64,000 nt of DNA from Plasmodiophora brassicae (taxonomy: Eukaryota), in contig CP145415.1 in the NCBI GenBank assembly GCA_036867785.1, positions 868,001 to 932,000 of the forward strand, written 5' to 3'. Below the pieces are notes generated by a model, which saw only the letters and a program-made list of their open reading frames with translations, did no database searches and was not told where the DNA came from. This document shows positions 13,939-15,263 of this stretch, one piece after another; within the stretch, counting starts at the first letter, position 1, and each line of letters begins with the position of its first letter. The position numbers were made by a program, and so were the translations under genes.

Positions 13939-14184
13939 GACCTCACGCACTAATTTGACAACTGACCCGCGCGCGGTCCGCACTCCGCCCCGCCGGGCAT
14001 ATCCAGTCAGGAGGAGGGACAGCTGCCGAGACTGAGTCGCTTTCGGCCGTTGTCCCAGCCATGATGGAGACTCTCCGGGCACTGTATCAATGGTTGGGGA
14101 ATTGATTTTATAACGACAACGTCAGTGAACCTCATGATATGTCCAACGACCTCGTCCCGCGTACGGGTCGTGGATCCCTATGGT

Positions 14185-14321
14185 TATCACATCTTCGAAG
14201 ACACGGAAAACGCCTTCAAAGAGAAGATCTCATTGGAGTACTGCTGCGCCCGGAACTGGTTACGGGTGCAGCACTCCAATGAGACCTTTTCTTTGAAGGC
14301 GTTTTGTCCCAGGAGGTGGTA
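14185..14321 (+). ncRNA. Long pre-miRNA-like hairpin (candidate small-RNA precursor)
   Basis: 14207-14239 pairs with 14273-14305 (33 positions: 31 Watson-Crick, 1 GU, 1 mismatch); 3-nt bulge; 14243-14252 pairs with 14263-14272; 10-nt loop; imperfect basal stem; no credible ORF. Confidence 0.55.
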
Positions 14322-15263
14322 TCCAGTGACGACACCCCGCTAGGTGCTTGAAACCGTCCTGTTGGCGGCAGGCCTAATGCTTGGAAACGCTAGCGGTCAA
14401 AGACTCTGATCTGGGCTGGACAAGATGTGGGCACCTGCTTCATGCAAGAGGAGTGAAAGACGTGGCCGCAGTGCATCAGCCGCGCACATTGCCCTTGGTA
14501 GATGTGGTCCTGGCAAATTGTGCATCTACTAGAAGAGGTAAAAGGTCGCTATACTTCGTAAGGCTTTGAACTTTCGATTCCAAAAGAATAGCATCACTCG
14601 GCTTTCGATCCGGTCGAGCTCTACTCGCGTTTCCGCCGGCGACGACCAGAGCTACAAACGCCGCCGCAGAGGCAGCCTCAGCCAGTTCCGAAGTGACATC
14701 AAGTTTGCCTGGGCTGCATGGAGCATAGCCTAGGTCGTATGGCGGCAGCGCTACAGCAATACAGCGTCACCGGACCTGCCCTGCGGAAGCGGTAGTTTTA
14801 ACTCACACTGGGCCGTGCACCTCGTGCTCCAGATGGGCGGAAAGGTGGGGCGATCTTCACTCCAAGTTGATTTTGAGGAGCACAGACGGCATCGGTATGT
14901 TGTTATTCTATGGCTAGACGGCGACGGAGGGCTCTCCTCCGACCGCGAGAGTGGTCTCTCTATACGGCATTGACGATAATGACCGTGGTCCCCGTTAATG
15001 GACACCTGCCCGGGACACGGTTTGACCGAAACTCATTTCTCCAGCATCTTCCCAAGTGGCTCGACGTCGGGCGAGAGCCCGCCAGTCAGCATGGGTTGCC
15101 CTGCGCGCGCAGTTGATCAACGTTCGCACAGCCGCACGTCCCGCACACGGCGAAACTGCGCCGGGTCTGCAGAGCCAAGCCAGGCCAGGCGGTCGTTGAC
15201 TCGAACGCAACCTGTGTGCTACCCAGGTGAAACCCGTCGGCAGGTACTTGATACTGCACTACG

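Follow-up and report, generated by a model that had tools for sequence, protein, structure and literature searches.

The closest described systems to the locus analysed here are the small-RNA loci of Plasmodiophora brassicae itself, for which Zhang et al. 2026 (PMC13547706, Table S8) predicted 234 miRNAs from small-RNA reads. The same paper describes a Drosha-like RNase III, PbDRL, that turns long dsRNA of any kind into 21-mers, and both PbDRL processing and loading into PbAGO1/2 were demonstrated for RNAs other than Pb-miR126. Validation in that paper covers miR002, 041 and 045 only; Pb-miR126 is a prediction without individual validation. ShortStack called it under a relaxed strand cut-off of 0.5, the minimum being 10 reads, and it is entered at Ctg_8:881736-881811 as a 21-nt RNA with a 5' C and a 76-nt precursor. 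Table S8 gives the mature RNA only, with no star entry.

The window that we analysed is a stretch of 64,000 nt of the P. brassicae genome (GCA_036867785.1, contig CP145415.1, positions 868,001 to 932,000 of the forward strand), and coordinates below refer to it unless another contig is named. The original prediction had singled out the gap between a UPF1 gene (PF09416, with its ATG at 13938 on the - strand) and an ankyrin gene, both confirmed, as the site of a + strand RNA structure with nine stem-loops, such as a pri-miRNA-like transcript or an undescribed ncRNA. The one real element of the gap is already known, as row 126 of the published miRNA table (PMC13547706). Judged by its sequence, the main hairpin is the locus published as Pb-miR126, and in this respect the RNA is not undescribed, since the 5' arm is Pb-miR126. 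The single exact genome site of Pb-miR126 (G000:C10:882229, + strand) lies in this arm, so that genomic sequence and listed mature RNA agree at one place, as befits a P. brassicae miRNA locus; the chromosome coordinate is also similar to the listed one. The three validated miRNAs of PMC13547706 that we tested likewise have exact genome matches. The - strand mirror of the site departs from Pb-miR126 from position 12 on. The miRNA thus matches the + strand only, and the RNA is therefore probably made from a + strand transcript. What differs is the precursor, which has 76 nt in the table and 99 nt here (137 nt with its base).

Table 1. Features of the UPF1-ankyrin gap and its flanks (window coordinates)
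Feature	Position	Strand	Basis
UPF1 5' exons, intron 13500-13553 spliced out	13356..13952	-	PF09416, E 1.7e-41; joint in 3 of 4 runs
Likely bidirectional promoter of UPF1 and host transcript	13953..14012		Contig starts, TCAG motifs
Unspliced low-level transcript (pri-miRNA or long leader), continuous with ankyrin ORF	14013..15263	+	Contigs; probable strand from miR126
Two small hairpins at transcript 5' end	14016..14095	+	Borderline; z -1.73, 9 of 200 shuffles
Basal extension of hairpin	14185..14321	+	z -13.2 (+) vs -9.8 (-)
Pb-miR126 hairpin precursor	14207..14305	+	Folding, genome single-copy search
Mature Pb-miR126, 21 nt, 5' C, on 5' arm	14229..14249	+	Agrees with Table S8 (PMC13547706) in all 21 letters
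Implied star strand, 18 nt, 2-nt overhangs	14268..14285	+	Pair table of the predicted fold
Five small hairpins of the original prediction, at chance level	14322..14965		Shuffle z, windowed folding
Intronless ankyrin-repeat ORF, 543 aa, hydrophobic N-terminus	15264..16895	+	Covered unspliced in 3 of 4 runs

The precursor hairpin is predicted to form 42 pairs with two A-C mismatches, a 3-nt bulge and a 10-nt loop (-70.3 kcal/mol). Its arms are 38 nt each and are Watson-Crick paired at 35 of 38 positions, the others being, on the + strand, one G-U and two A-C. At 99 nt, it is the stable single hairpin of under about 300 nt that is expected of a miRNA precursor, with a folding z of -13.9 on the + strand and -14.0 on the - strand and none of 200 shuffles equally good. 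Among 5,114 windows of 100 nt covering both strands of the 64 kb, it ranks first by residual z (-10.5, against -5.4 for the runner-up). The core is equally stable on the two strands, and the + strand is favoured only by the basal extension (Table 1). Within the fold, a single bulge at miRNA positions 12-14 leaves three bases of Pb-miR126 unpaired, which lies exactly at the limit for miRNA duplexes (at most 5 mismatches, and at most 3 nt in asymmetric bulges). It is because of this bulge that the implied star has only 18 nt.

The hairpin occurs once in the 25.28-Mb, 20-contig genome, where searches returned self matches only and no donor gene. A dispersed repeat or MITE, which was one way in which the original prediction could have failed, is rejected on the same search and on the lack of a target-site duplication at the hairpin flanks. 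The Rfam check that had been proposed returned nothing at gathering level in the 64 kb, the best match (37 bits, cut-off 90) being a generic hairpin one. A metagenome scan for the paired arm motif returned three contigs, which we regard as chance matches because they are alike only over 11-13 letters at the motif. Telomerase RNA was also considered and rejected, as none of seven telomere-type motifs occurs within 13900-15300. Elsewhere in the window, an inverted repeat at 7353-7392, with 17 bp perfectly paired around a 6-nt loop, belongs to the second-strongest 100-nt window (z -5.4), and windows 2651-2750 (z -4.4) and 59076-59175 (z -4.9) also fold beyond the composition-based prediction.

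The genome holds two Piwi-domain genes in tandem, as described in PMC13547706. About 20 kb from the hairpin, at 33564-34979 on the + strand, lies a gene whose product combines two RNase III domains with a dsRBD, the layout of PbDRL. From its domain make-up, this gene is a candidate for PbDRL (Pb06299), the likely hairpin-processing enzyme. As for targets, a genome search at up to 3 mismatches gave no convincing one for Pb-miR126. The sole other site within this limit, G000:C6:714242-714262, is antisense to an apparent coding exon and has two of its three mismatches in the seed. About 0.4 such sites are expected by chance (a hand estimate), and by sequence this one is a weak, chance-level candidate. 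Nine miRanda predictions are listed for Pb-miR126 in PMC13547706, all with low scores (100-109).

These observations bear on a reading that we consider possible, if distinctly less probable than a MIR locus, namely that the hairpin is an inverted duplication of recent origin and no selective value whose transcript yields several hairpin siRNAs by dicing, with miR126 being merely the commonest read and regulating nothing. The relaxed calling of miRNAs and the reported ability of PbDRL to make 21-mers from any long dsRNA (PMC13547706) would both fit such an origin, as would the failure to find a relative of the hairpin or a good target. On the other hand, the locus did pass the ShortStack miRNA call and is absent from the phased and repeat-type loci listed for Ctg_8 (PMC13547706), and the basal stem folds better on the strand from which the RNA derives. 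In the tables of that paper, phased loci are absent from Ctg_8:857427-1182763 and repeat-type loci from Ctg_8:673501-971323; these negatives cover the miRNA, phased and repeat-type tables, outside which lie the paper's 78,890 siRNAs, and the rest of the gap may therefore still give rise to siRNAs.

The larger claim, that about 1 kb of back-to-back hairpins forms a polycistronic pri-miRNA or a long structured ncRNA selected on the + strand, fares far worse. All nine stem-loops do fold at the coordinates given for them and the run can be drawn, but only 14185-14321, with its core, goes beyond chance, the others being at or near shuffle level. The whole of 14010-14965 has a z of -4.65 on the + strand and -4.82 on the - strand, but 14322-14965 alone has +0.51 and +0.69, a level that 15 of 20 shuffles reach. 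On the + strand, 14 windows 120 nt long within 14320-14959 range from -0.22 to +2.08. In 26 gap windows of 100 nt per strand that avoid the main hairpin, the mean residual z is -0.10 (+) and -0.03 (-); just outside this set, 14001-14100 reaches -2.6 on the + strand, and 14010-14100 has a z of -1.73 (9 of 200 shuffles as good). A slight excess can be seen when the eight best 45-nt windows without the main hairpin are compared with shuffles, of which 3 of 60 do as well on the + strand. The excess is equal on the - strand (2 of 60); the folding of the small hairpins outside the main one is borderline and shows no strand specificity. The 1-kb block also stands at the upper end among 26 GC-matched 1-kb blocks, and the region is transcribed, both of which would suit the idea.

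The argument for strand selection came from the remark that non-Watson-Crick pairs are mostly G-U on the + strand. The count itself holds (22 G-U in the + folds against 5 in the - folds), but hairpins that had been picked on the + strand will show such an excess in any case. An unbiased comparison, with hairpins selected alike on both strands, gives a plus-minus folding difference of -2.9 kcal/mol; in shuffles it is -6.0 +/- 8.4, and 40 of 60 show one as large. The strand asymmetry is not there, an outcome that the original prediction had itself named as refuting it. Moreover, the small stems are too short to hold a 21-nt duplex, and no second miRNA is listed for the gap, the nearest to Pb-miR126 in the tables of PMC13547706 being 24 kb before and 127 kb after it. 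In other words, the transcript does not carry at least two precursor-grade hairpins, as a polycistronic cluster should, and folding does not exceed chance along its length on one strand, as a long structured ncRNA should.

Strain variation points in the same direction. The gap has 14 substitutions between strains, 8 of them in or within 2 nt of small hairpins and 4 at paired positions. Three of these four break a pair, one turns A-U into G-U and none is compensatory, although two of the three breaks, both in one contig with a depth of only 2.7, could be errors. A terminal G-U is the site of the third, and a neighbouring change in strain X5 adds a pair there. Nor are differences rarer in the gap, where X5 differs at 13 of 847 positions, compared with 20 of 1,740 in the ankyrin gene (p 0.46); the X5 contigs compared lie on either side of the main hairpin, which is bare in X4 as well. 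Taken together, we regard the polycistronic or structured-RNA idea as largely refuted already and very improbable. What survives of the original prediction is a + strand transcript with one miRNA-like hairpin, given that the arm equals Pb-miR126 on the + strand only and that unspliced contigs extend over most of the gap.

Assembled contigs from 4 of 24 listed runs (X1, X4, X5 and X16) describe this transcript. None of the runs is recorded as RNA, and X1, X4 and X5 are taken as such because the UPF1 intron is spliced out in them; the kind of X16 is unrecorded and it is not used as evidence. The contigs of this small run fall in 14060-14658, while the ankyrin ORF has none of them and UPF1 hardly any. 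The contigs carry no information on strand, start or level and include no DNA control. In X1, they span 14016-14207 and, with no break, 14251-16851; in X5, 14013-14170 and 14335-15024; and in X4, three pieces lie between 14339 and 14965. None of the four runs has a splice joint in the gap. The hairpin itself is not spanned by any contig, and we attribute the X1 break at 14207/14251 to the effect of an inverted repeat on the assembly graph. Positions 13953-14012 are bare of contigs in all four runs, and the first contigs of X1 and X5 begin no more than 3 nt apart, which weakly suggests that transcription starts near 14010, about 60 nt from the UPF1 5' end. TCAG motifs are present at 13965 on the - strand and 14007 on the + strand, and it is likely that UPF1 and the host transcript have a common promoter here.

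The unbroken X1 contig raises the question of whether the gap is instead the long leader of an ankyrin mRNA isoform, switched off in cis by PbDRL cutting or by the 19 ATGs present in the 1.25-kb stretch upstream of the ORF. We consider this unlikely. A contig across two genes is no proof of one transcript, and in X4 and X5 the ankyrin contigs are not joined to the upstream pieces but start at 14946 and 15169, as would be expected if the gene had a downstream start and a promoter of its own. A more elaborate version would place the miR126 hairpin in an ankyrin leader driven by the UPF1 promoter, so that a PbDRL cut would free the small RNA and silence the isoform while the upstream ATGs would lead to UPF1-dependent decay. 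This is less probable still, and we mention it for what it would mean if true: in Rhizaria, a Dicer-less RNase III pathway would control a host mRNA in cis, and this control would be linked to the decay factor's own promoter.

A protein gene in the gap, whether spliced or small, such as the frame of 69 codons at 14134-14343 that crosses the hairpin, is the least credible of the alternatives. There is indeed a 92-codon stop-free frame across the hairpin. However, Pfam gave no family over its cut-off in any of the six gap frames tested, no paralogue was found, the four runs have no splice joint there, and other strains carry 1-nt deletions at 14656 and 14668. As for the flanking genes, the N-terminal hydrophobic stretch of the ankyrin ORF resembles a signal peptide, and its product is possibly secreted, to judge by sequence; in strain X5, the valine run of this ORF is shorter by 6 nt at 15287. 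One X1 contig of UPF1 has a foreign 53-nt 5' end joined at an AG just before the ATG (13952). The foreign piece maps once, to the G000:C5:138989 region, and is followed there by GT, which resembles a trans-splice joint. Nonetheless, a library chimera is the more likely explanation, since the joint has three shared letters, the foreign piece runs antisense to a frame of 125 codons, and it occurs in one contig from one of three RNA runs. Spliced-leader trans-splicing is reported as not found in P. brassicae (PMC6053224).

We therefore return to the reading that the gap holds a single-copy MIR locus of P. brassicae, with its processing and targets being presumptive, and put its probability at roughly 0.78. 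It is supported by the hairpin z of about -14, the 21/21 match of Pb-miR126 on the + strand, the unspliced RNA, the single genomic copy and the similar stems of validated miRNAs; it is weakened by the relaxed ShortStack call, the 76- versus 99-nt precursor, the bulge with its 18-nt star, the folding on both strands, the unstranded contigs and the failure to find a convincing target. This probability overlaps in part with those of the neutral hairpin and the ankyrin leader. UPF1 would be transcribed to the left from a short promoter, which would also give rise, in the opposite direction and at a lower level, to an unspliced + strand RNA starting at about 14010. Some 200 nt into the transcript, the RNA is predicted to fold into one 42-bp hairpin, from which PbDRL would release the 21-nt, 5'-C Pb-miR126, as the work on Pb-miR002 suggests. 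Loaded into PbAGO1/2, the miRNA might then silence partly complementary RNAs. The remainder of the gap would be unstructured primary transcript running into, or overlapping, the ankyrin gene, and the hairpin itself probably arose by a short local inverted duplication.

What is added here to the published entry is a map of the surroundings, in which the single-copy hairpin sits some 200 nt downstream of what is probably a common promoter with UPF1, on an unspliced RNA reaching the next gene; the tables and sections of PMC13547706 consulted here carry no mention of the host transcript or of the UPF1 adjacency. Pb-miR126 resembles the validated Pb-miR002 and Pb-miR045 in that all three are 21 nt in length and lie in one arm of an extended, nearly perfect stem. 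The two validated stems are longer, and unpaired bases in positions 1-19 number 0 in miR002, 1 in miR045 and 3 in miR126. Neither shows sequence kinship with the gap, and Pb-miR126 is set apart from the validated miRNAs by lacking their northern or reporter tests (PMC13547706).

Further afield, the leaders of DGCR8/Pasha mRNAs, whose hairpins are cut by Drosha, share with this locus a hairpin upstream of an ORF, possibly on the same RNA, the single transcript and the cis-control being only putative here. Young plant MIR genes and inverted-duplication hairpin siRNA loci differ in that no donor gene was found here and in that P. brassicae is reported to be without Dicer and RdRP. They nevertheless share with the Pb-miR126 locus a single-copy, lineage-restricted and near-perfect fold-back. 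With its surroundings mapped, the Pb-miR126 locus is a compact case for studying how a hairpin that is short and bulged is handled by a lone Drosha-like enzyme where Dicer is reportedly lacking.
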